This document shows positions 3,506 to 24,232 of a stretch of 64,000 bases of DNA, in pieces (positions within the stretch are counted from its first letter, which is position 1; every line of letters begins with the position of its first letter). Below the pieces are notes generated by a model. The model saw only the letters and a program-made list of their open reading frames with translations. It was not told where the DNA came from and searched no databases. The position numbers and the translations under genes were made by a program. This stretch comes from an uncultured Acidobacteriota bacterium (GTDB lineage Bacteria > Acidobacteriota > Terriglobia > UBA7540), in NCBI GenBank assembly GCA_963804995.1, contig CAWDSK010000001.1:416001-480000 (forward strand), in the 5' to 3' direction.

Positions 3506-3750
3506 TGCCACCCCCGGTAAGCTTGACCGGAACTATCCTCAAGCATCCATACGCGCCCAGCCTCTTAAATGTTCCCTGGCCCGCCCATGCTCCCGGGTAT
3601 CGATACCCTGTCGCGAGTTGGCCGGAGCAGATTGCGGGGACTACACCTGCCAGGGTTAGACGATGGTTCCTAAGAGAGGTTATCAGCCAACAGACGGGGC
3701 CGAGGGAGTGGGACCCGGGCGGATCGGGTCATCGGATCATTGAGTGATCT

Positions 3751-4224
3751 TGCGATTGGGCGATTGACGAGCTTCCATCCGTTGAGTTTGGTTCAGGTTC
3801 GCGTCCCAATCAGCCGATTACCGTAGCGGAGAAGTGTGGCGGGGGATGGCAGTCGGCTTGTGGATTGGACTATCGGTCCATCAGCACAAGGCGAAAATTC
3901 ATAGCCCTCTCCGAGGGGAGAGGGTGGCGCGCTGCCGGCGTACTCACCAACCGGAGCGCGGCGGGTGAGGGGTCACTTCGCGCCTATCGCCCCGACTGCC
4001 CATGGGGCTCATGTTCCGTCGTAAACCCACCGATAAGCGATGTGGGGAAGTGCGGCACAGCGCGGATTGGTTCATTGATTCATCGGGTCATTGAATCATT
4101 GAGTGATCGGGTGATTTGTGATTTGCGATTTGTGGTCTGCGATTGGGCGATTGACGGCTTCAATCCGTTGAGTTTGGTTCAGGTTCGCGTCCCGTCCTGC
4201 CGATAACCGTAGCGGGATAGTGTG
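3751..4224. repeat. About 88-bp imperfect direct repeats (3751-3838, 4138-4224) flanking a REP-like palindrome
   Basis: Both copies contain tgcgattgggcgattgacg..cttc.atccgttgagtttggttcaggttcgcgtccc...ccgat.accgtagcgg. Confidence 0.85.
3900..3978 (+). repeat. REP-like dispersed palindrome (ccctctcc..ggagaggg family), copy 1
   Basis: catagccctctccgaggggagagggtgg...gggtgaggggtcactt; homologous reverse-oriented copy at 57719-57800. Confidence 0.8.
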
Positions 4225-5041
4225 TCAAGGCCGGCGAAGTCGGTCGGTGTTCTCATCCCGCAATTTGGTTCCCTCGTCACTCGTCACTTGTCACTGGTCA
4301 CTGCTTTTGAAGTGTGTCACACGGGGGCAGGGGGATCGGGGTTAGGGATTTGGGCCTTTGGATTAACTGTTAGCTGTCGGCTGTGAGCTGTCAGCACGGA
4401 GACTTGTGTCACGGGCGAGGCTGGACGGATGTCGACTCGGCTGGGAAGCGGGCGCAGCGCCCCTCTGCATCGCGGCGATTCGTCCCCCATCGGCAACAAA
4501 AAGCCGCGGACCTAGGCGACCGGTCCGCGCGACGATTGCTTATTAGGGGAACTGCAACCACACGACGAGCGATTTAATCGCTATGGCGGTGGTGCAAAGT
4601 ATTGGAAGCCACCAGAGCTCGGAATCGGTTACCTTGGTTTTTTGCATTTGCGCATCCGGAAACGGGTCGAGGTCCTCTGGCTCCCGCGCTGTCCCCAAGT
4701 TCCTGATAAGATGCTCCCTTTTCTCCAGACACTGCCTACTGCATCACGGACAGTGCACTTCTGTCCGTGGGCTTTTCTCAGGCCCGATACCCCAGCGGCA
4801 ACCGCACGCCGTCAATCTGGATGGGCATGGCGCTACGGCCGGGAGTATGAAGTTGCTAACCCCGGAGTGATTCACTGCCGATGGGGTTTTGGGCAGCCAC
4901 ACCCTACCGTCAAGTCGTCCGGCTCCGGCGGGACGTCTGGAACAGGGCGTCGCAGAAGCGTCGGGTCAGCCGTAAACACCCCGGACGCGACCACTCGCAC
5001 CATGGCAATAACTTTATGGCAGCGCCTCAGGCCTCCTGGCA

Positions 5042-6439
5042 TTACTCGTAGGTCTCGCAGTTACACCACTTGCCTTCTTCATCGTAATGGGGCCAGGGAC
5101 CGCCCGTGCGGAATCCGGAAACAATGGGATCGTCATACAGGGGCGTAGGCGCGAAGTAACCGGGCCTCCGCAGGTGCGCTTTCACCACCTCATCGTTGAG
5201 TTCAAGGCCGAGTCCAGGCTTCTCCGGAACCGTCACGAAGCCATCCTTGATAATCGGCTTGGGAACGCCGGTCACCAGGTCCTGCCACCACGGCATATCC
5301 AGGGCATGGTTCTCCATGGCCAGGAAGTTGTCTCCGAACGTGGCGGCGCAATGGTATCCCGCGAAGCCGCCGATGGGCGATCCGGCGTGGTGCATGGCCA
5401 CCTGGATGCCCGCCATCTCGGCATAGTCGGCAATTTTCTTGGTCTCCAACAGCCCGCCGGAGGTTTCAATGTCGGGATGAATCACTGCCACCGCGTGGTT
5501 ATCGATCAGCGGCCGGAAACCCTCTTCCAGTCCGAAAATGTCTTCGCCGGTATTGATAGGAGTGGTGGTGGATTCGCTGATTTGCTTGTAACCGCGCCAG
5601 TTTTGCCAGAACCACTGATGGCCTTCCTGGGCCTGCAGGATATCCTCCGCCCAGGCAAGCTGGTATTTCTCGAAGGCCCGGGCGTAGCGGATGGAATCCT
5701 GGATGTTGAGCGGCCCGAAGTGGTCGGCGGCGAGCGGGGCCGACCAGCCGATCACGTCACGGATGGCGGCAATGAATTCGCACAGGTAGCCCAGGCCCTT
5801 GTCGGTGGCCACCCCGCGATCGTTGACGGCGCCCGGCCGGTCCTTCACCAGGTCCGTTTCCAGATCCATCTTGAAGAAGGTCACACCCATCGCCTGGCGC
5901 TTGCGCATGCGTTCCGCGTACGTCTTGACATCCGGGTGAGCGGTGGTATCCGCATAGATGCGAATGCGGTCGTGTTTCTTTCCGCCGATCAGCCGATAGG
6001 CCGGAACGCCTAACACTTTCCCGGCAATATCGTGCAGGGCCATATCTACCGCGCTATACCCTCCGCCCATACGTCCGTGCCCGGCAAAGGGGCGAACCGT
6101 TGCCAGGTTGCCCTCAATGTCCAGAGGGTTCTTCCCCAGCAGGTGCGCCTTGAGGATCAGAGCGATACCTTCCACCCCCGCGTCGCGCACTTCCCCCAGT
6201 CCGTAAACATCCTGGTTGGTGTAAATTTTGATGAGCGGATAGTCATAATTCGCGGCCACCCGGCAGGCGCGCATGTCCGTAATCTTCAGCCCGCTCGGAG
6301 CGGAGTTCCGATTCACCGTTTCCTGCGCGCTCACCGATCCCTGGGTCGCCTGGAACAAGGGACCCCACAGGGCCGCCGCGGCGGCGCTGCGCAGCAGCGA
6401 CCGGCGGGTCATCCTTGCCTTCTCACGATTGCTAACCAT
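5042..6439 (-). CDS. Mandelate racemase/muconate lactonizing enzyme (enolase superfamily) with Tat signal
   Basis: TRRSLL Tat motif; SAVDMALHDIAGK, FFKMDL, ADHFG, WAED, TGED metal-ligand motifs. Confidence 0.9.
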   Translation of the reverse strand: MVSNREKARMTRRSLLRSAAAAALWGPLFQATQGSVSAQETVNRNSAPSGLKITDMRACRVAANYDYPLIKIYTNQDVYGLGEVRDAGVEGIALILKAHLLGKNPLDIEGNLATVRPFAGHGRMGGGYSAVDMALHDIAGKVLGVPAYRLIGGKKHDRIRIYADTTAHPDVKTYAERMRKRQAMGVTFFKMDLETDLVKDRPGAVNDRGVATDKGLGYLCEFIAAIRDVIGWSAPLAADHFGPLNIQDSIRYARAFEKYQLAWAEDILQAQEGHQWFWQNWRGYKQISESTTTPINTGEDIFGLEEGFRPLIDNHAVAVIHPDIETSGGLLETKKIADYAEMAGIQVAMHHAGSPIGGFAGYHCAATFGDNFLAMENHALDMPWWQDLVTGVPKPIIKDGFVTVPEKPGLGLELNDEVVKAHLRRPGYFAPTPLYDDPIVSGFRTGGPWPHYDEEGKWCNCETYE

Positions 6440-6717
6440 ATTCTCCTCCTAGGGGTCGTGTCCCAGCGGGTAGCCACGCTGTCGCCGCGGCTGAAAGTCC
6501 GCCGATCTTAATGGCGGGCGACCTGTCCTGGCGATGGGATTTTCTCACGCCCGATGCCCCAGCGGCAACGCACATCATCAATCTCGATGGGACACCCCGC
6601 CCCAGTTGCCATGCCCAAGGCAGAATCGTTGTAACTCGACCGCCGCCAGAAGAACCCACGGTCAGAAAATCACTGACCGTGGCTACCCCGCTGCCTCGGG
6701 GATATCGGGTATGAGAA

Positions 6718-6933
6718 CTAAGCACGACTAGAATGCCCGGCACTATGGATAACTTGAACCCTGCCGACTTTACCGCTCTGCAGCCTTACCTTGATCCCGT
6801 GCGGGTGGAACGGGGACGTCGTGAGAAGGTCCTGGACGATGCCTCGGGTCTGTTTCCCTGTGGGCTGGTCCTCTTTGAGGACAACTGAAACGTCTGCTCC
6901 ACGCGCCACGTCACTTCGGTTCCGTCCATCCAT
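6718..6933 (-). CDS. YwbE family (DUF2196) small protein
   Basis: MDGRNR..VVLKEDQPTGKQTRGIVQDLLT.SPFHPHGIKVRL.SGKVGRV matches the YwbE pattern. Confidence 0.88.
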   Translation of the reverse strand: MDGRNRSDVARGADVSVVLKEDQPTGKQTRGIVQDLLTTSPFHPHGIKVRLQSGKVGRVQVIHSAGHSSRA

Positions 6934-7072
6934 GGAACTTACCCCCTTCAGACCCTCGTCAAAAACTTCATGCGGGCTACATATCACAATAATCCATGGG
7001 GATAACAAAATCATCCCGGCCTCGGGGCAATCGGTCTACATGGCAGTGCAGCTTCCAGGATGCCTTTCACGG

Positions 7073-7668
7073 TCAGAAGAGGTATTTCAATGCGAACTGA
7101 ACCAGACGAGGGGCGACCGAGGTTTGGGTGATCACACCGAAGTTTGCCGTCCCCAGCGACGTGCCGGGATTCGCGAACTGGGGATGGTTGAGGGAGTTGT
7201 AGAATTCGACGCGAAACGCCAGCTCGGCGTTTTCCCGCAGGCCTCCCACCACAGTTCTCTTTCCCAACGATATATCGGTATTAACCTGTGGCGGCCCGTC
7301 CAGGAGGCTCTGGCCGGCGTTGCCGTACCCCGTTGCGCCATCGGAACCGATCGCGGGCGCAGCGCAGATGGCTGACGTATTGATCCAGCCGCCGAGTCTC
7401 GCTTCCACGCTGCCGGAGGTGGCCAGGGCCGCCCGACCCGGGCAGAGCGTTACGGTTGAGGGCGAAGCCTCACCGTAGACGCTGCCTCCGGCCGGATCGG
7501 TCGGGGTCAGCGGCAATCCGCTTTGCACGATAACCAACCCGGTTGTAGTCCACCCGTTCAACAGTTTCCCCGCCGCGCCCGTGCTGTGGACGGAATTGGG
7601 GAACTGGTAATCGAAGTTGGTAACGATCCGGTGCGTGCGGTCAAAGGACGCGCGCGCCCAATTCCTAG
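7073..7668 (-). pseudogene. TonB-dependent receptor, C-terminal part separated by IS1634
   Basis: RASFDRTHR...FRVEFYNSLNHPQF...FGVITQTSVAPRLVQFALKYLF; joins in frame to the 9684-12676 part once the IS is removed. Confidence 0.9.
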
Positions 7669-9683
7669 CCTGCCTTTCGCACTTCCACCCGCTACCGGGC
7701 TGATTTTGGCAGCTTGCGGTGCACAAGGTCTTTGCCTTCAATGGGCGCGGGTTGAAGAGTGCTTGTAGGCCCGACCTACCCTCTTTTCTGGGGCGCGAAG
7801 GTCTGGCATTCTGGGGCGTGCACCTGAAGATTCATCGACGCAAAAAGGACGGCAAGGAACATCGTTATTTCAGCATCGTCGAGAGTCGGCGCGTGTCGCG
7901 CTCGAAGGTCGTGCATCGGACGGTGCTGTATCTGGGCGAAATCAACGACAGCCAACAATCCGCGTGGCGCAAGACGCTGGAGGTTTTTGACGAGGACCGT
8001 CGCGTCCTCGCGTCCCTGAGCCTCTTCCCGGAGGACCGCGAACTTCCTGCGGATGCTGTGGACGGCGTACAAGTGAAGTTGAGTGAAATGCGCGTTGAGC
8101 GGCCGCGCACCTTCGGTGGCTGTTGGTTGGGCTGCGAGCTGTGGCGCCAGTTGAAGCTGGACGAGTTCTGGCAGGCGAGGTTGCCGGAAGGGCGCGAGGG
8201 AGTTCCGTGGGAGAAGGTGCTACGGCTGCTGGTGGTGAACCGGTTGATCGAGCCGGGCAGCGAATTCCGTGTGCATCGGCACTGGTTCGATCAGACCGCC
8301 ATGGCCGAGTTGCTGGCAGTGAACTTCGCGGTGGCCGAGAAGGACCGGCTCTATCGTTGTCTGGATCGAATACTGGCGCACAAGGCGGAGTTGTTCCAGC
8401 ACCTGCGGCTGCGGTGGCAAGACCTCTTTGCGGCGCGCTTTGATCTGCTCCTCTACGATCTCACCAGCACCTATGTGGAAGGAGAGGCGGAAGCGATTCC
8501 CAAAGCCCGCCACGGTTACAGCCGGGACGGGCGGTTCGACTGTCGGCAGGTGGTGATCGCCCTGGTGCTGACGCCGGAAGGTTTCCCGCTGGCCTACGAA
8601 GTGATGGAGGGGAATACTTCCGACCGGAACAGCTTGCGCGGTTTTCTGGACAAGATCGAGAGCGTGTACGGCAAGGCACGGCGGGTGTGGATGATGGATC
8701 GGGGAGTTCCCAGTGAAGAACTGCTGGCGGAGATGCGCACCCCGGGGCGGGAGATGTTTTACCTGGTGGGGACGCCACGGGGCAAGATCCGGCAGTACGA
8801 AGCGAAGTGGACGGAACTGCCGTGGCGGAAGGTGCGCGAGTCGGTAGAGGTGAAACTGTTCGCGGAGGAAGGCGAGTTGTATGTGCTGGCGAAGAGCGCA
8901 GGCCGCCAGGCGAAAGAGATGGCCATCCGTCGACGCAAGCTGGCACGGCTGTTGTGGAGGCTGCGGGCCTTGCGGCGCGTGTGTCCGACGCGTGATGCGT
9001 TGCTGATGAAGATCGGAGCAGCCAAGAGTGAAGCCGGACGGGCCTTCGGTTTCGTGAAGATCAGCGTGCCCAAGGCCCAGGAAGAAGTGACTCGCCAGAC
9101 CTTCCAGTTCCGGCTCGAGCGCAGCAAGTTGGAGGAAGCGGAGCGGCGCGATGGACATTATCTGTTGCGCACCAATCTGACGGGGGAAAATCCCGAGGTG
9201 TTGTGGGACCGCTACATGCAACTGGCGCAGATCGAAGCGGCCTTTAAGTGTTTGAAGAGTGAGCTGGGAATTCGGCCGATTTATCATCAAATAGAACATC
9301 GCGTCGAGGCCCACATCCTCATTGCCTTTCTGGCGTACGGCTTGTGGGTGACGCTGAAACAGCGTCTGCAGGCCCACGCTCCGGGCCTGACGCCGAAAGC
9401 GGTGCTGGAGAAGCTGGCGGGCATGCAGATGCTCGATGTGTCTTTCCCGACCACGGATGGGCGCCGATTAGTGATGCCCCGCTACACCGAGCCGACACCC
9501 GAACAAAAGCTCCTGTTGCACGAACTGCAGCTCGTGCTCCCCACTCAGCCACCGCCCAGGATCACGGTCCAGCCGGAAATCTTTCCTGCTGGAATGCTGC
9601 GTTTGTAGGCCAGACCTTGGCAATGCCTGTACTGAAAAGAAGCGAGTTAACCCAACTCAACACCCTGAAGTGCGAAAGTTCGG
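7669..9683 (+). mobile_element. IS1634-family insertion sequence
   Basis: Terminal inverted repeats CCTGCCTTTCGCACTTC / GAAGTGCGAAAGTTCGG; CTAG on both flanks (7665-7668, 9684-9687). Confidence 0.92.
7818..9608 (+). CDS. IS1634 family DDE transposase
   Basis: LLYDLTSTYVEG, GYSRDGRFDCRQVV, WMMDRG, IEAAFKCLKSELGIRPIYHQ; GTG start at 7818 inferred. Confidence 0.93.
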   Translation: MHLKIHRRKKDGKEHRYFSIVESRRVSRSKVVHRTVLYLGEINDSQQSAWRKTLEVFDEDRRVLASLSLFPEDRELPADAVDGVQVKLSEMRVERPRTFGGCWLGCELWRQLKLDEFWQARLPEGREGVPWEKVLRLLVVNRLIEPGSEFRVHRHWFDQTAMAELLAVNFAVAEKDRLYRCLDRILAHKAELFQHLRLRWQDLFAARFDLLLYDLTSTYVEGEAEAIPKARHGYSRDGRFDCRQVVIALVLTPEGFPLAYEVMEGNTSDRNSLRGFLDKIESVYGKARRVWMMDRGVPSEELLAEMRTPGREMFYLVGTPRGKIRQYEAKWTELPWRKVRESVEVKLFAEEGELYVLAKSAGRQAKEMAIRRRKLARLLWRLRALRRVCPTRDALLMKIGAAKSEAGRAFGFVKISVPKAQEEVTRQTFQFRLERSKLEEAERRDGHYLLRTNLTGENPEVLWDRYMQLAQIEAAFKCLKSELGIRPIYHQIEHRVEAHILIAFLAYGLWVTLKQRLQAHAPGLTPKAVLEKLAGMQMLDVSFPTTDGRRLVMPRYTEPTPEQKLLLHELQLVLPTQPPPRITVQPEIFPAGMLRL

Positions 9684-14293: not shown

Positions 14294-14857
14294 TTGACCG
14301 GCCACAAATTTCATGCGCCGAAAGGCATTGGCGCGCTGTACGTTCGTCGCAAATCGCCATTTTCGCCATTGGTCTACGGCGGGCATCAAGAGCGCAACCG
14401 GCGCGGTGGCACGGAAAGCGTGCCACTAATTGCGGGAATGGGGAAAGCTGCCGAACTGGCCCGCAAACACTTGCCGGACTATGAGCAGAAAGTGCGCCCG
14501 TTGAGGGACGAACTTGAGGAAGGTATCTTAAGTTCTATTCCCAATACGGAATTGAACGGACACAAAACGCAGCGGATTGCCAACACGACAAACATCACTT
14601 TTCACGGCATCGAATCCGAAGCGCTGCTGATCTTGCTCGATAAGGAAGGCATCTGTGCATCGTCCGGCTCAGCGTGCCTTGCCGACTCCGACGAGCCCTC
14701 GCACGTGATTAAGGCGATGAAGCCGGAGGCCATAGCGTCGCGACAAATGATTCGGTTCTCAATTGGTGCCGCCACGGCCAGAGAGGGAATCGAAGTGGTG
14801 GTCAACACCGTAAAGTGCCAGGCGGCTGCTTTGCGCGACGTGTCGTCGCCGCATTGA
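14294..14857 (+). pseudogene. Cysteine desulfurase (DndA/IscS-like), C-terminal fragment
   Basis: Begins at TGHKFHAPKGIGALY (PLP-lysine motif) and contains SSGSAC; N-terminal half missing. Confidence 0.88.
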
Positions 14858-14919: not shown

Positions 14920-15993
14920 TCAGCCCTTCGCCATCGCGATTCGGCTCCGCGCCAGCCGGACCGCTTCGTGCAGTTTGCGCTCTAATTCCTTCTTCGGCAA
15001 CAACTCTGTCCAGTAGCTGGCCACGTGAATACCGCTCTTTTCGAGTTCCAGCAGGGCGACGTGCTCCGTACTCTTGCCGGCGCAAAGGATCATTCCCAAC
15101 GGTGCAGCCTCCTGTGGTTCCGCCGCGTACCGTTTCAGCCACCCCAGGTAGAGTTCCATCTGCCCTTTGTCCGCGGCTTCAAACTGCCCGATTTTCAATT
15201 CGATGGCGATCAGGCGACAGAGCTTGCGGTGATAGAAAAGCAGGTCGAGGTGGTAGTCACGGTCGTCAATCTGCATGCGCAACTGGCGGGCTACAAAGCA
15301 GAACCCCACCCCCAGCTCCAAGATGAACGACTCCATCTCCCGCAGAATGGCCGACTCCAAATCCTTCTCCGCATAGGTATCTTTCAACCCCAGAAAATCG
15401 AGGACGTAGGGATCGCGGAAGACCAGGTCGGGTGTGAGCTTGTATTCGTCACGCAACTCCCTAAGCTCACGGCGGATCAGTTTGTCCGGCTTTTTGGAAA
15501 GCGCCGTGCGCTCGTAAAGCATCGACTGGATTTTCTGCTGGAGGGTACGTGTGCTCCAGTTCTCCACCCGGCACATTTCGGTGTAGAAATCCCGCTTGAG
15601 ATGATCCTGAATAGGAATGAGCCGCAGGAAGTGGGTCCAGCCCAATTGTCGTAGCAGCGATACGACAATTTCCCGGTCCGGGTAGGCCTCCGCGAACTGG
15701 ATCATCCGGCGCAGGTTCTTCTCGCCGAATCCCCGGCCGAAATCCCTCTCCAATTGTGCACTCAGTGCGGACACAATCTGTTCGCCATACTCCGCGCGTT
15801 TTTCCTTTAGGATGTCTTGCCGGATGCGCTGCCCCACATGCCAGTAAAGCGTGGTTAGCGCCGCGTCTACCGCGCGGGCGGCGCCTTGGCGGGCTTCTGC
15901 AATCAGTTCCCGCACGTCGGCCAGCAACGCCGCGAGCCCTTGGGGGCGTAAAGCCAGGGCCTTCTTTCTCCCGGGCGGTTTTCGTCCTATCAT
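14920..15993 (-). CDS. YhcG/DUF1016 family PDDEXK nuclease
   Basis: YWHVG, NLRRMIQFA, LGWTHF, RDPYVLDFL, FILELGVGFCFVARQ, DLLFYHRKL..IELK, GQMELYL. Confidence 0.93.
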   Translation of the reverse strand: MIGRKPPGRKKALALRPQGLAALLADVRELIAEARQGAARAVDAALTTLYWHVGQRIRQDILKEKRAEYGEQIVSALSAQLERDFGRGFGEKNLRRMIQFAEAYPDREIVVSLLRQLGWTHFLRLIPIQDHLKRDFYTEMCRVENWSTRTLQQKIQSMLYERTALSKKPDKLIRRELRELRDEYKLTPDLVFRDPYVLDFLGLKDTYAEKDLESAILREMESFILELGVGFCFVARQLRMQIDDRDYHLDLLFYHRKLCRLIAIELKIGQFEAADKGQMELYLGWLKRYAAEPQEAAPLGMILCAGKSTEHVALLELEKSGIHVASYWTELLPKKELERKLHEAVRLARSRIAMAKG

Positions 15994-16268: not shown

Positions 16269-16539
16269 ATGTGGGCGAATAACGAAACGGGTGTGTTGTT
16301 CCCTGTCGAGTCAATCGCGGAAATTTGCCAGTCGCGGGGCGTGCCGTATCACTGCGACGCGGTGCAAGCAGCGGGCAAGGTGGAGATTGATGTGCAAAAG
16401 ATCCCGGCGGACTACCTTTCGCTAACCGGCCACAAGTTCCACGCGCCGAAAGGCATTGGCGCACTCTACGTCCGTCGCAAATCACCATTTTCGCCATTGG
16501 TCTACGGCGGGCATCAAGAACGGAACCGGCGCGGCGGCA
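16269..16539 (+). pseudogene. Cysteine desulfurase (DndA/IscS-like), middle fragment
   Basis: MWANNETG..HCDAVQAAGK..TGHKFHAPKG; 16425-16539 duplicates 14297-14411. Confidence 0.88.
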
Positions 16540-16563
16540 TAGGGGCGGTACCCGGCGAAAAGT

Positions 16564-17088
16564 CTATTTCGACCATTTGAAGGCTAGGACGGTGATCGCC
16601 CAAGGCAATATGGCAAACATCATTGCGGTATAGGCACGCTTCAAGTACTTAAACTTATTATTGATGATCTCTGAATTTCGGTGGCATTGCTCCAAGAGAT
16701 CTTGCAAATGCTGATCAGTCGTTCGGCATGACCAGCACTGACTGAATTCGTTAAACGAGTTGCCAGCGATCGACCCGAAAAACAATAACGATTTAGACGG
16801 ACCTCTGGTGCGTGGGTAGTTGGCGCAGTGAATAAAGGTGAAGCCGGTCGCTAGCATACCTATGGTCGTCGCGAAGGCAACGACCGCCCACCACCTCCAT
16901 TTTTCGGGCTCTGGTGCAAGTGACACTGCAACTCCTAGCATTCCAGTGTGCATTCCCAAGACAACCGAAATTTTGGTGTCCACTTTGCTACCCCACTGAA
17001 GCACTCTATCGAGGTTTTTCTCAGCGTACGCGATCTGTTCGCTCAGGGGCCATCCGGCAACGACTTCGGCATGTACATTATTTTTCAT
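16564..17088 (-). CDS. Pycsar-type transmembrane effector (PycTM/DUF5706-like)
   Basis: W..KVDTK followed by TM helices, YPRT..SLLFFGSIA, DLLEQ..NSEII..KFKYLKRA plus a C-terminal TM. Confidence 0.82.
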   Translation of the reverse strand: MKNNVHAEVVAGWPLSEQIAYAEKNLDRVLQWGSKVDTKISVVLGMHTGMLGVAVSLAPEPEKWRWWAVVAFATTIGMLATGFTFIHCANYPRTRGPSKSLLFFGSIAGNSFNEFSQCWSCRTTDQHLQDLLEQCHRNSEIINNKFKYLKRAYTAMMFAILPWAITVLAFKWSK

Positions 17089-17117
17089 AAGACCAAACTG
17101 ATAGAGCAGTGGGTTTG

Positions 17118-17621
17118 CTAGTCCAATTCTGCGATTCGCTGTCTGAACAATTCCACGAGCTCGTCTGAAATCCAAGCGCCCGCGCGGATCATTTCTTCTA
17201 AGATTCTGATTCCATCGTTCCCCGTAATTTCCCCAATCTCAATTGCGTATTCCAGCACTCCGATTGCGCCGGCGACCGGAATTCCAAATTCCTCCGCGCA
17301 ATTCCGAGCCAGCTTGTCGTTTGTCAAAACAGCGGCCCCTCTAGACCATGCCACCACAATGGCACCAGATTCACCGAGCCCCAGTCCGGGTCTGCCCTCA
17401 CGCAAACGTTGAAATCTCTCCCAGTCCTCCTCGCTGACCAGAGCTACCACCTCCGCACTTGGCATAGCTATGGAAGCACGATCGAGCTCATCTTGCACGA
17501 AGTCGGAAACCAAGAGACGCCCACTAAAAACTCGCTCGAGTGTGTCGAGCGAGCCGGAACGCTGAAAGTCCACGACAACGCTTGAGTCAAGCGACACGCG
17601 GGTTATGCTAAGCCGGTGCAA
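17118..17621 (-). CDS. PIN-domain nuclease (DUF3368-like)
   Basis: LDSSVVVDF, V.DEL, LGLGESGAI, VLTNDKLAR, GAIGVL; TTG start overlapping the upstream stop is inferred. Confidence 0.82.
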   Translation of the reverse strand: MHRLSITRVSLDSSVVVDFQRSGSLDTLERVFSGRLLVSDFVQDELDRASIAMPSAEVVALVSEEDWERFQRLREGRPGLGLGESGAIVVAWSRGAAVLTNDKLARNCAEEFGIPVAGAIGVLEYAIEIGEITGNDGIRILEEMIRAGAWISDELVELFRQRIAELD

Positions 17622-18738
17622 AATCCGTTTCCCTTCTCCATTCCTGGGTCTTAGCCCGCGCTTCGCTGACATTTACGCTAAGTAGTTCGGCGAGTTTTCC
17701 GAGGGACACCATACTGTTGAGAGCGGCCTTTCTCGCGAGATGCGCGAAGCGGCTTGACCTCTCCCAAGCTTCGATCATCGTCTCGTCGAGCGGTACAAAC
17801 TCCTTTCTAGGATCGCTCTGTCGCTTTTCCACCTCCTCCATTAGTCGCCGCTGGTCATCGTCTGAGATTAAGCGGAGGTCCCGAACTCTGCGCAACATCA
17901 TCTGCGCACTGACTTGGAAATATTGCTTCAAGAAAACTATGTCTTCCAAGCCAACGGTCTTGTCCCCAACGTCCCGATGTAAAACGTCTCGAAGTCCCAC
18001 TTCCGGAACTAGAAACGAAGCCGCGAAACAGTCTGCCATCTTCTCGGGCACACTGTCCTTTGGTAGACCGCCGGTCGGTGCGGCACTGCTATACATAGGC
18101 CGATGCATCAGCAGGTGTCCGCATTCGTGCGCTAATGAGAAGACTTGGCGCTCTACCGTGTTGGCGCTGTTGACTAAGATACAGAGACCATAGTTAGAAG
18201 AGTACGCGGATAACGCAAAAACCTCATCTCCCTCCATCTTGTGCCGTAAGATCCTGACCCCCTGCTCATCGAGCAACTTAAAGATGTTTTCAATCGGATC
18301 ACGCTGGCCGAGTCCTAGGCGTTCACGCTCAGAAAGTGCAACTTGGACCGCGTAATCGAACGGCTTCGAATGCGCCCCGGGTCCGCCAGAGTAGTCGGGA
18401 AGCTGGAGTAGATTTTCGGCTCCGACAATTTCCTCTAGCTCACGATACGCTTTGGAATGCCTTTCAAATGATAAGCGGGCGTTCCCGGGAGCGGTCGCCT
18501 CCGCGACAGCCCGGTACAATAACGCCATAGTATCTTGGTCCCCTCTGAAAAAATCAGCGACCGGACAACCAAGAAGGCGAGAAGCTACCAGCAACTTGCT
18601 GCTGTCGATGGCCGTATGACCATTCTCGATGGCGCTGACCGTGGCCCGGGAGAGTCCGATTTTAGCGGCAAACTCCTCTTGGGATAGACCCGCTAACTCC
18701 CTTGCTCTCTTTAGATTTCGTGCGATGATCTCTTTCAA
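17608..18738 (-). CDS. XRE-family HTH fused to ImmA/IrrE (DUF955) Zn-metallopeptidase
   Basis: NLKRARELAGLSQEEFA..SRATVSAIENG HTH; RQVFSLAHECGH (HExxH); EKMADCFAASFLVP; TTG start after GGAGGG (alternative ATG at 18768). Confidence 0.93.
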   Translation of the reverse strand: MKEIIARNLKRARELAGLSQEEFAAKIGLSRATVSAIENGHTAIDSSKLLVASRLLGCPVADFFRGDQDTMALLYRAVAEATAPGNARLSFERHSKAYRELEEIVGAENLLQLPDYSGGPGAHSKPFDYAVQVALSERERLGLGQRDPIENIFKLLDEQGVRILRHKMEGDEVFALSAYSSNYGLCILVNSANTVERQVFSLAHECGHLLMHRPMYSSAAPTGGLPKDSVPEKMADCFAASFLVPEVGLRDVLHRDVGDKTVGLEDIVFLKQYFQVSAQMMLRRVRDLRLISDDDQRRLMEEVEKRQSDPRKEFVPLDETMIEAWERSSRFAHLARKAALNSMVSLGKLAELLSVNVSEARAKTQEWRRETDFAPA

Positions 18739-18760
18739 TTTCCCTCCAGTGTATAAAATC

Positions 18761-18798
18761 CTTGACATATAATTGATCTACTTGTTGTGATTGTCAAG
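18761..18798. promoter_or_regulatory. Divergent promoter region with inverted CTTGACA...TGTCAAG
   Basis: cttgaca at 18761-18767 and tgtcaag at 18792-18798 in an AT-rich spacer; AGGAG RBS before 18823. Confidence 0.6.
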
Positions 18799-18822
18799 TT
18801 AATTCGACATTAGGAGTATCTT

Positions 18823-20367
18823 ATGTCTTGGAACTTTGATCGAAGCAAGAAACGAGTCGAGGCAGAAGCGAAGCGCCTAGCGCATGCGGGCATCAGCGTC
18901 AAGCCCCTCACCCGCGAAATGGACTTAACCAACCTCTCTCCCACAGAAGCTAGGCAAGTTAACGGCGTCCATCTCTATTCAAACGTGGAGAATCTGGAAG
19001 AACTGCTAACGTCCGAGGCCCTTCGAAAGAATAATTTCAGGGCATTGCACAGATTCTTTCAAGTCTTCAGGAGTGAACAGCGCCGCATCATTCAAAACGT
19101 CTTCGAAGGGGACAAGATCCAAGTTCAGGGCCCAAAGTTTCACGGGCTAATTTTCAAGCCTTATGGGAAGGACTCTGAGATCGCTTGGCGCTCCATTCTC
19201 TGCTCAAGTGCTTTACACCTTTTAGCGGTAAGGGCGCTTCCCGAGGTGTTTCCGGGATACCCACCGATCGTCTCTGCTGCAGGTCTAGAGCTGGGAAAAA
19301 CCGTCGTAGCAAACATCGGGATGCGGGGCGAGAGAGAGCTCATCAGCGTTGGTCGACCAGCAAATTACGCAGCTAAGATTTTCGATAAAGACGCGCCAAT
19401 CACCGTCGGCGAGAACCTCTACTCAACGCTCACGAAGGACCGGCAGTCCTTATTCGGGGCAGCCGAAGGGGTTTATCGGCTAGACCAGTCAGCCGTTGAT
19501 TCCCTAGGGGACGTGCTTCGGGACGAGGGATTCTCCTGGAGTGTCGAATCGTCCGTTAGGCGCCTCAGCCGTGAGATTGAGGTGCTTCCACTTGACAACA
19601 TCTTGGTGGAGGAAGCCCGTGAGAAAATCAATCTCGAAAGGCTCGGGCCGAAGCGCGCAAAGGTTTGCGTGGGCGCAACAGTATTTGTGGACATTGACGG
19701 CTACACCCGATTTGTCGATTCCCTGTTGGACGATGTCGACAAACTTGGGAAGGCTGTTCAGTTGCTGCATCTATTCCGCTATGAGTGGCGCGAAGTAACC
19801 GAGAATGATTTCGACGCGATCGAAATTCAGCATCAAGGGGACCGCTTGCAAGCATTGTTGCACGTACCTACGGATGACGAAGAACTAATGATGGAGAGGG
19901 CTGTTGATTTAGCCATCAGCTACAACTCTTCGGTCGATGAGGTTTTGAGTAAACACTGCGAGAAAGACCGGGCACTGCGTGTGGCGATTGGCTGTGATAT
20001 CGGTAAGGCGTTGGTGTCGAGAATTGGCGTACGGGGTGATCTAGACGCGACATGCCTCGGTAGGTCGGCACTGCGTGCAGAGATTTTGCAGGTTGGATCT
20101 AAGAGTGGCGAGATTTCGATAACCGAGAAGCTTCGCCACGCAATCAGCGAGCAGTCCATCTCAGAGTTATTCAAATACTGTGAGTCGACCGATGCATACG
20201 TAGCAAAGGACGTTACCTGGACAACAATTGAAGACGCGGAGCACGTCCGAGCGTATAAGTCCAGGTCTGCTGCGGTCGTAACGGGGGCCGGTGCAATTGC
20301 GTTCAGGGTCCCAGCGGAGGCGACGGACCGGCCACTCAAGATCACGCGTCCGTGGTCCGATTTATGA
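18823..20367 (+). CDS. Class III nucleotidyl cyclase with two tandem cyclase domains (PycC-like)
   Basis: Domain 2 has VFVDIDGYT and QHQGD; domain 1 has LYSNVEN, QVQGP and SVGRPANYAAK. Confidence 0.85.
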   Translation: MSWNFDRSKKRVEAEAKRLAHAGISVKPLTREMDLTNLSPTEARQVNGVHLYSNVENLEELLTSEALRKNNFRALHRFFQVFRSEQRRIIQNVFEGDKIQVQGPKFHGLIFKPYGKDSEIAWRSILCSSALHLLAVRALPEVFPGYPPIVSAAGLELGKTVVANIGMRGERELISVGRPANYAAKIFDKDAPITVGENLYSTLTKDRQSLFGAAEGVYRLDQSAVDSLGDVLRDEGFSWSVESSVRRLSREIEVLPLDNILVEEAREKINLERLGPKRAKVCVGATVFVDIDGYTRFVDSLLDDVDKLGKAVQLLHLFRYEWREVTENDFDAIEIQHQGDRLQALLHVPTDDEELMMERAVDLAISYNSSVDEVLSKHCEKDRALRVAIGCDIGKALVSRIGVRGDLDATCLGRSALRAEILQVGSKSGEISITEKLRHAISEQSISELFKYCESTDAYVAKDVTWTTIEDAEHVRAYKSRSAAVVTGAGAIAFRVPAEATDRPLKITRPWSDL

Positions 20368-21035
20368 ATGTGCTTCCATGGTACAGAATCTCGCGTCATC
20401 GGCTTGAATCCGAACGCACCCTGCTGCGTAGCCTTCGATACTTCATTCCTGAAAGGCAGTACTTCGACACTCTAAAAAGACTAAACGTTGTTGGCATACT
20501 CATTTACTCTCGAATGCGTTCCGGCAGGGTCGAGCGGTTTCGGGTCCGCATAGAATACCCCGCTAGGTTTCCAAACTTTCCACAGCAGGTCTATGATCAT
20601 GACAAGGTGTTTCAGCCTGGGCACGAGGGCCACTTGCCCGACCACCGCCTCTGTCTGACCCTCCCCGAACGGCGAGAGTTTTCGACTGGTACCGAAGGGC
20701 TAACTGAAGAGGTTTTGGGCGCATCCTTAATCTGGCTTGATAAGCGTCTTATATTCGAGCGAAATGGTGGTAAATGGCCTGGGCTTGACGAGCGCCACGG
20801 CCTCTTTGCGAAAATCGATTTTATACTTGAGGCGACGGGTCTTTCGGAGGATGGACGGGCACGGAGCTGGATGGAGGACACTCTCGCGGCTGCGGCGGCG
20901 AGACGCGGGTTCGATATCGAATTGTATTCGCCGTGTCCGTGCGGCAGCGGCGAGAAAATGAAGTTCTGCCATTTCGACGGGTTCCGTCCCCTGATTAAAT
21001 TACTTCGAGAAGTCTCTCGTCAGGCGAATGGCTAG
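20364..21035 (+). CDS. Prokaryotic E2/UBC-like fold protein with C-terminal SEC-C motif
   Basis: FRVRIEYPARFP..P.V..H...DHRLCL; SPCPCGSGEKMKFCH; ATGA overlap with the cyclase stop. Confidence 0.65.
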   Translation: MNVLPWYRISRHRLESERTLLRSLRYFIPERQYFDTLKRLNVVGILIYSRMRSGRVERFRVRIEYPARFPNFPQQVYDHDKVFQPGHEGHLPDHRLCLTLPERREFSTGTEGLTEEVLGASLIWLDKRLIFERNGGKWPGLDERHGLFAKIDFILEATGLSEDGRARSWMEDTLAAAAARRGFDIELYSPCPCGSGEKMKFCHFDGFRPLIKLLREVSRQANG

Positions 21036-21973
21036 GGCGACTGGAAACTGTGGCGCTGGCGGTGCCATGTGAGAGATTCTCGGTCGGGCAAGTAATGCTG
21101 GTTTAGTGGGCGGAGAATTGACTTACCCGCACGTGGCTTCAGGAGATGCGCTGCATCTCCACGTTCATCAAAGCGATCCTCTGCCACGAGTATTGTGTAA
21201 TCGTTGCTGATCGACCAAAACCCGTGATCGAAAAGCCAGTGGGCTGTTTTTGAAAGCGCGATGCCATTCGTGGGGTGGTTGCTGCCACCTTGAGTGAGCT
21301 GATGGATGTGGGCGGCGTCTAGGGCCGTCTTGCCGTTCAGCGCGATCATCCGGTATTGGGTTAGGGCACAGGTGTAATCGTATGCCGGAAGCACGCGCAC
21401 TGCGAACTTCGCATCCCGTTGACTCTCGGTCTCGTGCCGCGGCATAAAGCGGGTGGCATCCGCTCCAATTACGTCATCGGGAGGAACTGGGAGATCGACA
21501 AGACTGTAAAGCTCCGCCCTTTCTTCCGGCCGAAAATATTTTGCGATCAGAGTACGCCGGGCCAGCGAACGAAACTCCCCCCACCCCAGACAAACGAGAA
21601 AAGATACGTCCAACTGGGCGATTACAGCCGCGTGCCGATCGGGAGCGGGCCGCCCTGCAGCATCAAGCGCTTGCCAGAAGCCTTCAGACTTGAGGTGATA
21701 AAAAGGGAAGTTTATATCAGGCTTGGTCTTCCTGCGGGGCGCTACTACTCGCCAATAGGAGCTGTAGCGGAAAGCCAGATCACCATCTTTTCTGAGAAGC
21801 GCGCCGTCGAGTTTGCCTTGTTCCACAATATCGCAGACGACGAGAAGCAAAAGGGGTTTCTGCGGCGCGTCCCCGAGCGCCGGATGTGCTTTGTCTGGTC
21901 GCAGAGAATTCAGCCGCTCAAGCCAACGCGTCCATTCGGGGGATGAGGTTGAGAGGAGAGCACCCGTGGCCAT
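21032..21973 (-). CDS. SBD-HNH endonuclease (phosphorothioate-dependent restriction enzyme-like)
   Basis: APQKPLLLL and FPFYHLKSEGFW sulfur-binding-domain-like motifs; CALT..LDAAHI..NGIALSKTAHWLFD HNH domain. Confidence 0.8.
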   Translation of the reverse strand: MATGALLSTSSPEWTRWLERLNSLRPDKAHPALGDAPQKPLLLLVVCDIVEQGKLDGALLRKDGDLAFRYSSYWRVVAPRRKTKPDINFPFYHLKSEGFWQALDAAGRPAPDRHAAVIAQLDVSFLVCLGWGEFRSLARRTLIAKYFRPEERAELYSLVDLPVPPDDVIGADATRFMPRHETESQRDAKFAVRVLPAYDYTCALTQYRMIALNGKTALDAAHIHQLTQGGSNHPTNGIALSKTAHWLFDHGFWSISNDYTILVAEDRFDERGDAAHLLKPRAGKSILRPLNQHYLPDRESLTWHRQRHSFQSP

Positions 21974-22792
21974 TTACCTCTCCATTGCGGAGGTCCGATT
22001 TAAATCGTCCTTCAGGATATTCAGCAAATCGCCGGGGAGGCCGTGGGCGCGGTGGCTTTCGCTGTATTCCTCCACCTTGGCAACCATGCGCCGCAGAGTT
22101 TCAACATTAATGCCTTTCTCGGCGGCGACTTTGTTTTCAATTTCTCGCAAACGGCCGAGTTCAGTCAAGTCGGCGTTCATCATCACACCCTTCTGCCGGT
22201 TGACGATGCGCGCCACGCCGCGCCCATCGTCCGGGTCGCGTGCGGCTTTCCACATTTGCTGGATCAGTAGGAGCTCCTCGGGACTGATGAGCTGTAATTG
22301 AACCTCTTCCTGCAACTTTAGTAATTGGGTCAGCAGTTCACGACGGGCGGTGATCAAGAGTGGCCCGGAACCCTGATTACCGTTCATACGGCGGGTGTCG
22401 CGCTTGCCGTTGGCGGGATCGCGGTAGAACAGTAGCGTTTCGCGGAATTCGATCAGTTTCTCCATGCGCTCGTCGCCCGAAGCCAGCAATCCTTCGCTGG
22501 CCCGGTCACGGTCAACCACGGTGCACGTCCAGCACCCGAAACGGCTGTTGCCACAACTGGGGGTGCTGGTGTCAATCTGGATGGGGTACTCGCCGTTCGA
22601 GGCGCTGGCGTAAAGCTTGTAGAGGGGGCGATTGCCTCGGGGGTTGGGGTTCTGTCGGCCCAAACGTCCTCGGTCGAGAGGAATTCATTCGATACCCAGA
22701 CGCGGGGCAAGTCAGGATGCCTCCGCAATCCATTGCGCGTTTGGCGGGCCGCCATGGTTTGGGCGCGGGTGGAGCTTTCGGCGCGGCGCGCG
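21974..22792 (-). pseudogene. dndC: DNA phosphorothioation sulfurtransferase DndC, C-terminal fragment (frameshifted)
   Basis: LYKLY.SAS.GE..IQIDTSTPSCGNSRFGCWTCTVV.RD; preceded out of frame by LGARRAES. Confidence 0.85.
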
Positions 22793-22908
22793 CCGAGGAC
22801 TAGGATCGCCTCGGGCGCGGTCAACGCGTAAATTCGAGAATTTGGCAAGCCAGTAATCAGGTCTGGTCATGGGGGTCGCCGCGGCGACCGCTCGGCCATG
22901 GGGCATTT

Positions 22909-23217
22909 CTAGAGCCCCTGGGTCAATATCCCTGCTACATCACGGCTGCCGTGCAAAATGGTGACCACTTGCAAGGGCTTGGTTTCAGGCCGGTAGACGA
23001 TCAGGTAGGAGTACACAGAAAAGAAGCGCACATTGGCAGAGGTCAAATCATGCCGCCAGTGGCCCGCGCCGGGGAAACTGGCCAGGTAGACACACTTGGT
23101 TCGAATGACGGATTCAACACGGTCGGCTGCTTCGAGGCTGACTTGCTGCTTGACGTAACGCCAGATATCCACCAGGTCACGGGCAGCCTGAGGGGCCAGG
23201 ACATATCGCGCGGTCAT
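22909..23217 (-). CDS. RelE/ParE family toxin
   Basis: YVLAPQAARDLVDIWRY..LASFPGAGH.R.DL..YLIVYR..VTILHGSRDV. Confidence 0.9.
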   Translation of the reverse strand: MTARYVLAPQAARDLVDIWRYVKQQVSLEAADRVESVIRTKCVYLASFPGAGHWRHDLTSANVRFFSVYSYLIVYRPETKPLQVVTILHGSRDVAGILTQGL

Positions 23218-23474
23218 TCCGGTTGAGCTTTCAGTCGATCGAGGTGCTCGTCCAGTTGGTCCTCGGGAATCCCTTCCCCCCGATCAAGTTCTCCGATTCC
23301 GGTTTGGATCTTGGCGTCCACGGCTTGGCGATTGGCCATTAACCATTCATCCCGCTCATGCAGCACTTCCAGCGCCCTTTCGATTACATCGTCGGGGCTT
23401 TGATAAGCTCCGGAACGCAGGGCCTCCGCGATGCGGTTTTCCTGTTCGGGCTTCAGTTGAATCGTCATGGCCAA
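23214..23474 (-). CDS. ParD-like antitoxin
   Basis: L.PEQE..I...LRSGAYQSPDDVI..AL..L; ATGA overlap with the toxin. Confidence 0.82.
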   Translation of the reverse strand: MAMTIQLKPEQENRIAEALRSGAYQSPDDVIERALEVLHERDEWLMANRQAVDAKIQTGIGELDRGEGIPEDQLDEHLDRLKAQPE

Positions 23475-23520
23475 TTCTCCCTGTGACCACTACTCTAACA
23501 CAACGCGTAAAAGAACTCCT

Positions 23521-24232
23521 TCTGGATGGGGCACTCGCCGTTCGAGGCGCTGGCGTAAAGCCTGTAGAGGGGGCGATTGCCTCAGGGGTTGGGGTTCTGT
23601 CGGCCCAAACGTCTTCGGTTGAGAGGAATTCAATGGGATTCGATACCCAGACACGGGGCAAGTCAGGATGCCGCCGCAAGCCGTTGCGCGTTTGGCGGGC
23701 CGCCATGGTTTGGGCGCGGGTGGAGCTTTCGGCGCGGCGCGCTCCCAGGTGCAGAATGGCCTCGCCCCAATGTCCAACCCGCTGCTTCACCAGGGCGTTC
23801 ACCGGGTCAATCTTCATCCTCTGCGTGCACCAGCGGAAGGTGCGGTTGGGGGGTGGGTAGCCGCGTCCAATGATGTTCACCCAAAAGGATTCTTCCATGA
23901 GCGGCTTCAGCAGGTTGGCGTCAATGTTCAGGCTGTGCTGCTCGGAGCACTTGCGCATGCGGTCCAGCGTGCCTTCAATCATTTCGGCAATGGCGGGAAT
24001 CTCCACGCGCGTGTCCGTGCAAAGGACCGAGATGGGCTTCTTGCGCTGCTCGGCGGGAATGGATAGGACGGCGTCAAAAATCAGCGACGCCGGCATGGTG
24101 CCGTTCCTTCGCGGGATTTACCCTGAGTGAAACGAATGGGCTCAGGACAGGCTCTTGCCACCGCTAAAGCCGACCAGCCAGGGCCGCTCGTCTTCCGGGT
24201 AGAGTTGGCGGAGGGAAGTCTTGAAAAACATC
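23521..24232 (-). pseudogene. dndC: DndC N-terminal and middle fragments
   Basis: LY..DERPWLVGFSGGK (24142-24232), TDTRVEIP, FWVNIIGRGYPPP.RTFRWCTQRMKIDP, LGARRAES; discontinuous. Confidence 0.85.

Follow-up and report, generated by a model that had tools for sequence, protein, structure and literature searches.

A tandem Pycsar-type cyclase with complementary half-sites and a lone E2-like neighbour in an uncultured Acidobacteriota bacterium

The subject of this analysis is a gene, pycC, in a 64,000-nucleotide stretch of DNA from an uncultured Acidobacteriota bacterium (assembly GCA_963804995.1, contig CAWDSK010000001.1, positions 416,001 to 480,000 of the forward strand), which is called the window below. 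Its product is quite probably a tandem Pycsar cyclase, PycC, in which one of the two sites between the domains is catalytically complete, and which likely turns UTP into cyclic UMP (cUMP) during phage infection. Directly behind pycC lies a gene for a lone E2-like enzyme, and the C-terminal module and tail of PycC are predicted to sit in the active-site region of this enzyme. The coordinates of the features are collected in Table 1.

How firm is the assignment to PycC? The open reading frame (ORF) is uninterrupted and its product of 514 aa is covered almost from end to end by the PADLOC PycC model PDLC00765 (E 2.4e-90; residues 1-512 on positions 1-476 of the 477 of the profile), with further PADLOC matches to PDLC02366 (9.4e-85) and PDLC00762 (3.1e-57). 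The Pfam scan of the protein gave no family at E 0.1 or better. It is invisible to PF00211, which accounts for its unannotated look. The best sequence match in the Protein Data Bank (PDB) is 6yii_A, the PycC of Pseudomonas aeruginosa (PaPycC), also of 514 aa (E 2.9e-35 over residues 2-492). BcPycC (7r65), a cUMP synthase with a single domain, aligns with residues 273-429 only, that is with domain 2. An AlphaFold2 (AF2) model, computed from an alignment with 43 homologues, has a predicted local distance difference test score (pLDDT) of 88.5 and a predicted TM-score (pTM) of 0.85. Its top Foldseek match is again 6YII (E 2.8e-35, TM-scores 0.75/0.81, 497 columns, 22% identity), followed by human soluble adenylyl cyclase (AC) and then by the soluble domain of AC9, both single-chain C1-C2 cyclases. 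Clade A PycC proteins have two consecutive cyclase domains, and PaPycC is placed in this clade (PMC11224242); the window protein is called clade A type by its homology to PaPycC, at the E-value and identity just given. By sequence it is a member of a diverged acidobacterial subfamily; the proteins close to it (43-73% identity) were found in soil metagenomes and in metagenome-assembled genomes (MAGs) of Acidobacteriota. A mis-called fusion of two genes was also considered; the open frame and the same length in 104 homologues rule it out.

The evidence for one complete site lies in how the catalytic residues are shared between the two halves of the chain. In a BLASTP comparison, residues 1-260 match residues 261-514 with E 4e-13 and 22% identity over 193 aa, and the alignment pairs LYSNVEN with FVDIDGY, QVQGP with QHQGD and GRPANYAA with GRSALRAE. 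The two halves are paralogous cyclase domains, products of an internal duplication, and the model and its Foldseek matches agree in giving two consecutive cyclase domains. In the translation, LYSNVEN stands at 51-57, QVQGP at 100-104 and GRPANYAAK at 177-185 of domain 1, and FVDIDGYT at 288-295, QHQGD at 336-340 and GRSALRAE at 413-420 of domain 2. All catalytic residues of a PycC are there, with D290 and D340 in domain 2 and N181 and K185, the ribose/transition-state pair, in domain 1. Conservation was counted in 104 full-length homologues, which are the 120 listed of 128 matches minus 16 shorter than 480 aa. D290, D340 and N181 are conserved in all of them and K185 in 103. The position of P104, the domain-1 counterpart of the second Asp, is D or E in none; the positions of L417 and I421, the domain-2 counterparts of Asn and Lys, are variable, with N in none and K once. 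At position 54, the counterpart of the first Asp, the window protein has N and 53 of the 104 homologues have D, so that by this alignment the loss of the first Asp in domain 1 is only partial across the family. The split pattern is far beyond chance. The internal duplication and the conservation in 104 homologues together indicate that the complementary half-sites are genuine and shared by the whole family. The conservation counts at the level of residues are a contribution of the present analysis.

Domain 1 also has K98, Q100 and Q102 as invariant residues, and the best stretch of the single-domain PycC model PDLC00766 on the window protein is at residues 151-207. The AF2 model and the Foldseek matches to 6YII and to the C1-C2 cyclases indicate that domain 1 adopts a cyclase fold. 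A first-pass annotation, made from the sequence alone, had described a single-chain pseudo-heterodimer with one full and one degenerate site, in which domain 1 lacks the Asp pair and keeps Asn/Lys and domain 2 shows the reverse; a domain 1 of some other fold would have spoken against it. The six motifs and the counts among the homologues bear out the split, the internal duplication and the structural matches agree with the architecture, and the fold predicted for domain 1 is that of a cyclase.

Might the tandem protein still be mainly a nucleotide-binding sensor or scaffold, with another, single-domain cyclase as its partner in a relay? The title of the PDB entry 6YII (released 2020), 'Class III adenylyl cyclase-like ATP-binding protein from Pseudomonas aeruginosa', can be taken in this sense. 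Four of the 12 related loci described below (L001, L010, L016 and L017) have a further cyclase gene next to the tandem one, and relay-like signalling has been raised for multi-cyclase loci in a preprint (10.64898/2026.08.12.744502). Against this explanation, 103-104 of the 104 homologues keep the catalytic Asp, Asn and Lys, and PaPycC is reported to be an active cUMP synthase (PMC11224242, PMC12489823). In the whole genome, the single-domain Pycsar-cyclase model matches pycC and four other ORFs (three of 555-662 aa, one of 276 aa); all four are elsewhere, and the model has no other match at or beside the locus. A role mainly as sensor or scaffold is therefore judged very improbable.

What of the second, degenerate site? 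By homology this pocket would be lined by N54 and P104 of domain 1 and by Q336, Q338, L417 and I421 of domain 2. Around it, H50, Y52, N57, Q336, H337, Q338, E420 and Q423 are invariant or nearly so in the 104 homologues, which suggests that the pocket is under constraint. It is a speculation that the pocket may bind a regulatory ligand, and the allosteric role, possibly in sensing a phage cue, that the first-pass annotation had proposed for it is likewise speculative. The invariant residues define a set of mutants with which the sensing of infection by a Pycsar cyclase could be studied.

Complementary half-sites in one chain are textbook matter for mammalian cyclases and have been described for Pycsar since 2020-2021; taken alone they are ordinary. 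The architecture is already established for clade A PycC, and it is not new here. The paper on 6YII is itself said to describe a pseudo-heterodimer. PaPycC and the window protein share much: two cyclase domains in a chain of the same length, membership in Pycsar, an Asp pair in the C-terminal domain and Asn-x-x-x-Lys in the N-terminal domain. They differ in sequence, in the top PADLOC model (PDLC00765 for the window protein, PDLC00762 for the PaPycC-like protein of locus L018), in the residues at the presumed base-contact positions, where PaPycC has D and H and the window protein Q100 and Q102, and in gene context, since in L018 the PaPycC-like gene stands before an E1-E2 fusion and a gene for a JAB-CNBD-TIR protein (CNBD, cyclic-nucleotide-binding domain) and the window pycC before a lone E2. 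In mammalian adenylyl cyclases C1 supplies the Asp pair. The membrane and soluble ACs of mammals are like the window protein in having two class III domains in a single chain, with one catalytic and one degenerate site, but the domain order is reversed: in the window PycC the Asn/Lys half is N-terminal and the Asp half C-terminal. The identity to mammalian ACs is about 12%, so an independent duplication is likely. The single-domain PycC proteins (BcPycC 7R65 of clade B, AnPycC 8JSZ, EaPycC 8JSF) share the cyclase core and the ANxAAK and DxD / GD motifs. They differ in being homodimers with two symmetric active sites (PMC11224242), and they align with only one domain of the window protein.

Related loci were found with the family alignment as query; a single-protein query had given 72 pattern matches, of which 0 were confirmed. 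Twelve loci are informative (L001-L005, L007-L010, L016-L018), with L006, which ends inside the gene, and L011, of 27% identity, left out. An E2-only gene directly follows the tandem pycC in 10 of the 12, an E1-E2 fusion in one (L018), and neither in L001. The gene behind the E2 is PycTM in seven of the 10 E2-only loci and PycTIR in two; L016 has nothing recognisable there. Tandem cyclases thus appear to split into an E1-E2/JAB-linked branch, which is PaPycC-like, and an E2-only branch, the acidobacterial subfamily; this division is first drawn in the present analysis. Tandem Pycsar cyclases appear to be the Pycsar branch that is tied to ubiquitin-like enzymes. The cyclase of L018 is close to PaPycC (6yii E 3.1e-169) and its E1-E2 fusion matches PDLC00855 at E 1.4e-185. 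The closest genome-borne relative, with 53% identity, is L001 (CAWHOT010000002.1, genome G401), where HTH-M78 (helix-turn-helix and M78 peptidase) and PIN-like genes also adjoin the tandem pycC, as in the window. Among 401 genomes of a phylum sample, four carry a window-type tandem PycC, the window's own included. The block at 16-22 kb of the window has a G+C content of 0.52-0.56 against about 0.59 (the rest is mostly at 0.57-0.63). Patchy distribution and lower G+C fit a mobile defence gene acquired horizontally.

Which nucleotide is made? PycC proteins of clades A-D turn UTP into cUMP (PMC11224242), and for P. aeruginosa PycC, which activates PycTIR, cUMP is reported as the sole product (PMC12489823); both sources cite Tal et al. 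2021 for PaPycC. A second line of evidence comes from locus L007, where the gene order is tandem PycC, E2 and PycTIR. In phmmer, none of the ORFs of at least 100 aa in the 6-kb flanks of this locus matched PycC with an E of 1e-3 or less. The PycTIR of L007 aligns without gaps with PsPycTIR (8jsk) and keeps G86, E87, A89, R97, S98, R138 and N143, the last being the residue that specifies uracil in PsPycTIR (PMC11224242). The conserved uracil-reading residues point to cUMP as the signal in L007, which is new in the present analysis. From the family assignment together with these residues, the product of the window PycC is likely to be cUMP.

Several points tell against cUMP. The subfamily is only 22% identical to PaPycC, and the presumed base-contact residues Q100 and Q102 are unlike the D and H of PaPycC. 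In a 2026 preprint (10.64898/2026.08.12.744502) that defines an E2-associated subclade, 'Pycsar-like-4', the AlphaFold3 ligand scores for its cyclases favour ATP, and the PDB title of 6YII also names ATP. The E2-linked subfamily might therefore have the same architecture and make cyclic AMP (cAMP) or another non-pyrimidine cyclic nucleotide. We consider this unlikely, since the effector beside the E2 in L007 keeps all the cUMP-contact residues of PsPycTIR, N143 included, and since PaPycC is reported to make cUMP and nothing else (PMC12489823). Moreover, it is by gene layout that the window subfamily is likened to 'Pycsar-like-4', and the two may differ. The first-pass annotation had also argued, from the Gln in place of the adenine-specifying Lys, that the product is not cAMP and might be a cyclic pyrimidine. 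The proposal fits the PycC family. The argument is suggestive and not decisive, because PaPycC, a cUMP maker, has Asp at that position and because the preprint leans to ATP.

Then what is the role of the E2-like neighbour? Its start ATG overlaps the stop codon of pycC (ATGA; the mechanically called ORF begins at GTG 20352), and an E2-only gene directly behind the cyclase gene is found in the window as in 10 of the 12 relatives. PADLOC E2 models match the protein with a best E of 6.3e-13. In 36 sequences of its family Cys97, His90 and the CxC..CH of the SEC-C motif are invariant, and its relatives approach the Pfam 'E2-ntca' prokaryotic E2 domain. The AF2 model has a pLDDT of 87.5. All its listed Foldseek matches are E2 enzymes, except one Tsg101 UEV domain, which has an E2-like fold; the best E is 1.7e-3, with TM-scores to the target of 0.38-0.57. 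None of the Foldseek matches reaches E 0.001, so that it is PADLOC, the invariant Cys and the consistent weak fold matches that carry the assignment. In the PDB, the E2 profile matched SEC-C peptides and, weakly, UBE2L3 (E about 0.008), and nothing else. An E2 fold with a catalytic Cys, as in the partners of E2-only CBASS cyclases, is accordingly indicated.

On the side of PycC, the AF2 model ends in a module with a helix at 466-479, short strands and a flexible tail with falling pLDDT. The tail is conserved as PLK-x-TR-(P/N)-(W/Y), after which come 2-4 variable residues. With both family alignments supplied, the prediction of a PycC-E2 complex scored 0.75 (median of three runs), against 0.00 for the best control; the mark applied to this score is reached by 116 of 157 solved complexes and by 2 of 215 mismatched pairs. 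At least 93% of the contacts agree between the runs, and the pLDDT of the partner is at least 86. The predicted interface joins residues 3-6, 369, 373, 465-493 and 503-514 of PycC to E2 residues that include 89-90 and 97-100. The C-terminal module and tail of PycC are thus predicted to sit in the active-site region of the E2, which is new in the present analysis; the prediction supports binding of the two proteins without showing it.

This geometry resembles that of E2-only CBASS. There, the cyclase cGAS is activated by the E2, which processes its C-terminus and forms Cys and Lys linkages (10.1101/2022.05.25.493364), and the E2-associated CD-NTases recruit the E2 with an extra C-terminal helix and three-stranded sheet (PMC12948482). 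In SmCdnG-SmE2 as in the window, the gene behind that of the signalling cyclase encodes a lone E2 that has a catalytic Cys. In SmCdnG-SmE2 an extra C-terminal helix-plus-strand module of the cyclase recruits the E2 and the tail enters it, and the same geometry is predicted for the window PycC. The differences are that the window cyclase has a class III fold, not that of a CD-NTase, that its tail is without a conserved Gly, that its E2 carries SEC-C, and that its interface is predicted as non-covalent. If the interface between PycC 465-514 and the catalytic region of the E2 is true, E2-only priming would not be special to CD-NTases, and a tail motif free of Gly would point to a different chemistry.

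Some observations weigh on the other side of this picture. The complex score is a model confidence, and its calibration is rough because custom alignments were used. A CBASS cyclase-E2 complex has been solved, and a likeness to it could account for part of the high score. In CBASS the Gly of the CD-NTase tail is needed for ligation (PMC12948482), and unlike in those tails no conserved Gly was found in the PycC tail among the 104 homologues. The genome of L001 is without an E2 although its PycC keeps the same tail; neither an E2-like gene nor a remnant was found at the locus or elsewhere in G401, where only SEC-C motif matches occur. The E2 is thus not always required.

That PycC and E2 genes are associated is already noted in print and is not new. 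'Type II Pycsar' (10.1101/2024.11.21.623953) and 'Pycsar-like-4' (10.64898/2026.08.12.744502) both join a Pycsar-related cyclase to an adjoining E2; the evidence in both preprints is comparative genomics only. Type II Pycsar is defined by an E1-E2 fusion and a JAB peptidase, from which the window differs in its lone E2 with SEC-C. The partner has 223 aa, and weak matches to E1-E2 models cover its E2 part; no JAB peptidase was found among the 8 proteins neighbouring the window PycC. Searches of the literature on Pycsar with ubiquitin-conjugating enzymes, Cap2/Cap3 or Type II Pycsar found no bench test of PycC with E2. The Ledvina preprint (10.1101/2022.03.31.486616) does not mention Pycsar, and neither PMC13069673 nor 10.64898/2025.12.03.692087 deals with PycC together with E2.

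Does the cyclase have an effector? A PycTM membrane effector is encoded 1.6 kb away on the other strand. It is the single PycTM match in the 7.55-Mb genome, and no leftover of a single-domain PycC turned up at or next to the locus when the whole genome was searched. As the sole PycTM of the genome, with no other Pycsar-type cyclase at the locus, it is the likely receiver of the cyclase signal. Its position and type count against this. The gene lies upstream, behind two other genes, and not directly after the E2 as in the relatives. It is of a different subtype, with E of only 1e-4 to 1e-6 to the PycTMs behind the E2 of relatives and 4.8e-26 to the PycTM beside the single-domain PycC in L017. 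After the window E2 there is no effector, and an HNH gene converges instead.

One explanation for this layout is that the PycC-E2 pair is an orphan, whose own effector was lost in a mosaic region, with the PycTM coming from another Pycsar system or belonging to the HTH-peptidase/PIN pair, so that no signalling is left. It would account for the opposite-strand HNH gene where nine of the 10 E2-only relatives have PycTM or PycTIR, for the likeness of the PycTM to that of L017, and for the duplicated gene fragments that flank inserted cassettes in the region. Yet the five ORFs are all intact and of family-typical length, the PycTM has no rival in the genome and the tandem PycC none at the locus. 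Moreover, should cUMP be the product of both cyclase types, the effector would respond all the same. We hold the orphan pair to be improbable, and the preferred reading remains a cyclase which signals to the PycTM.

The other two minus-strand genes are an HTH-M78 peptidase gene and a PIN-like gene; together with PycTM they form a row of mechanically called ORFs that overlap each other, divergent from pycC. By its profile matches the HTH-M78 protein is RmrA-like and CapH/CapP-like, and likely a repressor or an antitoxin. With the PIN-like partner it resembles the antitoxin-toxin configuration of RosmerTA, in which a Zn-peptidase antitoxin is joined to a toxin (10.1101/2022.05.11.491447). A sigma-70-like site was found in the intergenic region (minus strand, 18797-18769); it is weak, as 2 sites were found and 2.6 are expected.

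Taken together, these observations allow the following scenario. On phage infection, the window PycC would convert UTP to cUMP in an active site formed by Asp290 and Asp340 from domain 2 and Asn181 and Lys185 from domain 1. The nucleotide signal would open the PycTM in the membrane, and the infection would be aborted. The E2-like Cys enzyme is predicted to bind the helix-strand module of PycC and take the tail into its active-site region; by analogy with E2-only CBASS, it might process or ligate the tail to control cyclase activity. The HTH-M78 peptidase and its PIN-like partner may be a transcriptional switch of the CapH/CapP kind, or else a toxin-antitoxin pair in its own right, like RosmerTA. 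A bolder version, which we offer as a tentative one that may well fail, is that the lone E2 with SEC-C grips the C-terminal module, draws the LK-x-TRPW tail into the Cys site, cuts off the last 2-4 residues, ligates the cyclase to itself or to targets and so arms cUMP synthesis. It would be a ubiquitin-like priming, free of E1 and of Gly, on a second and unrelated cyclase fold, with the degenerate pocket reading a phage cue or a relay nucleotide.

Table 1. Positions of the cyclase, its parts and neighbouring features in the window, and of second cyclase genes in related loci
Feature	Position	Strand	Evidence or remarks
PycC, tandem (clade A type) Pycsar nucleotide cyclase, 514 aa	18823..20367	+	PADLOC, 6yii, Foldseek
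PycC domain 1 (residues 1-260), cyclase fold	18823..19602	+	metal Asp pair lost (N54, P104); N181, K185 kept
PycC domain 2 (residues 261-464), cyclase fold	19603..20214	+	D290, D340 kept (plus D292, R341); Asn/Lys replaced by L417, I421
PycC C-terminal module (residues 465-514), predicted E2-docking region	20215..20364	+	AF2, tail conservation, complex prediction
E2-like (UBC-fold) protein with C-terminal SEC-C zinc motif, 223 aa	20364..21035	+	PADLOC, AF2, Foldseek, invariant Cys
Divergent intergenic region, 54 nt	18769..18822	.	AGGAG ribosome-binding site before pycC
XRE-HTH fused to M78 (ImmA/IrrE) zinc peptidase	17608..18768	-	HTH_3 4.6e-16, Peptidase_M78 2e-16; RmrA 2.1e-38, capP 2.5e-17
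PIN-like / DUF3368 protein (PADLOC PDC-S70), likely toxin partner of the HTH-peptidase	17118..17672	-	PDC-S70 E 2.5e-17; DUF3368 1.2e-4 (below Pfam cut-off)
PycTM membrane effector	16564..17175	-	Pfam PF18967 E 4.3e-14 (above cut-off); PADLOC 2TM effector 3.6e-46, PycTM 3.9e-31
Second cyclase gene, locus L016 (G099:C4)	7848-8933		
Second cyclase gene, locus L001	2425-4054		
Second cyclase gene, locus L010	8859-10254		
Second cyclase gene, locus L017	9125-10351		

The second cyclase genes of the related loci are of more than one kind. In L016 it is a fusion of a cyclic-nucleotide-binding domain with a cyclase (PDLC00734, 4e-46); those of L001 and L017 come with a PycTIR or PycTM of their own. 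They could mean relay signalling, or simply stacked systems. Locus L018 (G134:C1) holds a complete 'Type II Pycsar' at 2597-7363, whose third gene encodes one 500-aa protein with JAB peptidase, cyclic-nucleotide-binding and TIR parts. Some genes of the related loci are each in two ORFs: the E2-like gene of L008 (7544-8153) and the tandem PycC of L009 (6001-7546) and of L010 (6001-7546). These splits may be due to frameshifts, to decay or to assembly errors in the MAGs.

Some observations concern the surroundings of the locus in the window. The HNH endonuclease gene at 21032-21973 (-) matches Pfam HNH_2 (1.9e-8) and PADLOC HNH (1e-11), overlaps the end of the E2-like ORF by 4 nt and sits directly downstream of a DndC fragment. 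DndC is in two pieces, at 21974-22663 (PADLOC DndC E 2.2e-40) and 23356-24096. Direct repeats of about 240 nt at 22576-22813 and 23521-23764 (91-96%) flank two overlapping small ORFs, 22909-23217 and 23214-23474, which by their appearance look like a toxin-antitoxin pair. On the other side, a YhcG/DUF1016 PD-(D/E)xK nuclease gene (14920-15993; PADLOC PDC-S02) is flanked by fragments at 14294-14857 and 16269-16580 that look by eye like a cysteine desulfurase of the IscS/DndA kind. The two fragments share a 115-nt direct repeat (14297-14411 and 16425-16539, 91%), and the nuclease gene between them looks like an inserted cassette with partial duplication of its target.

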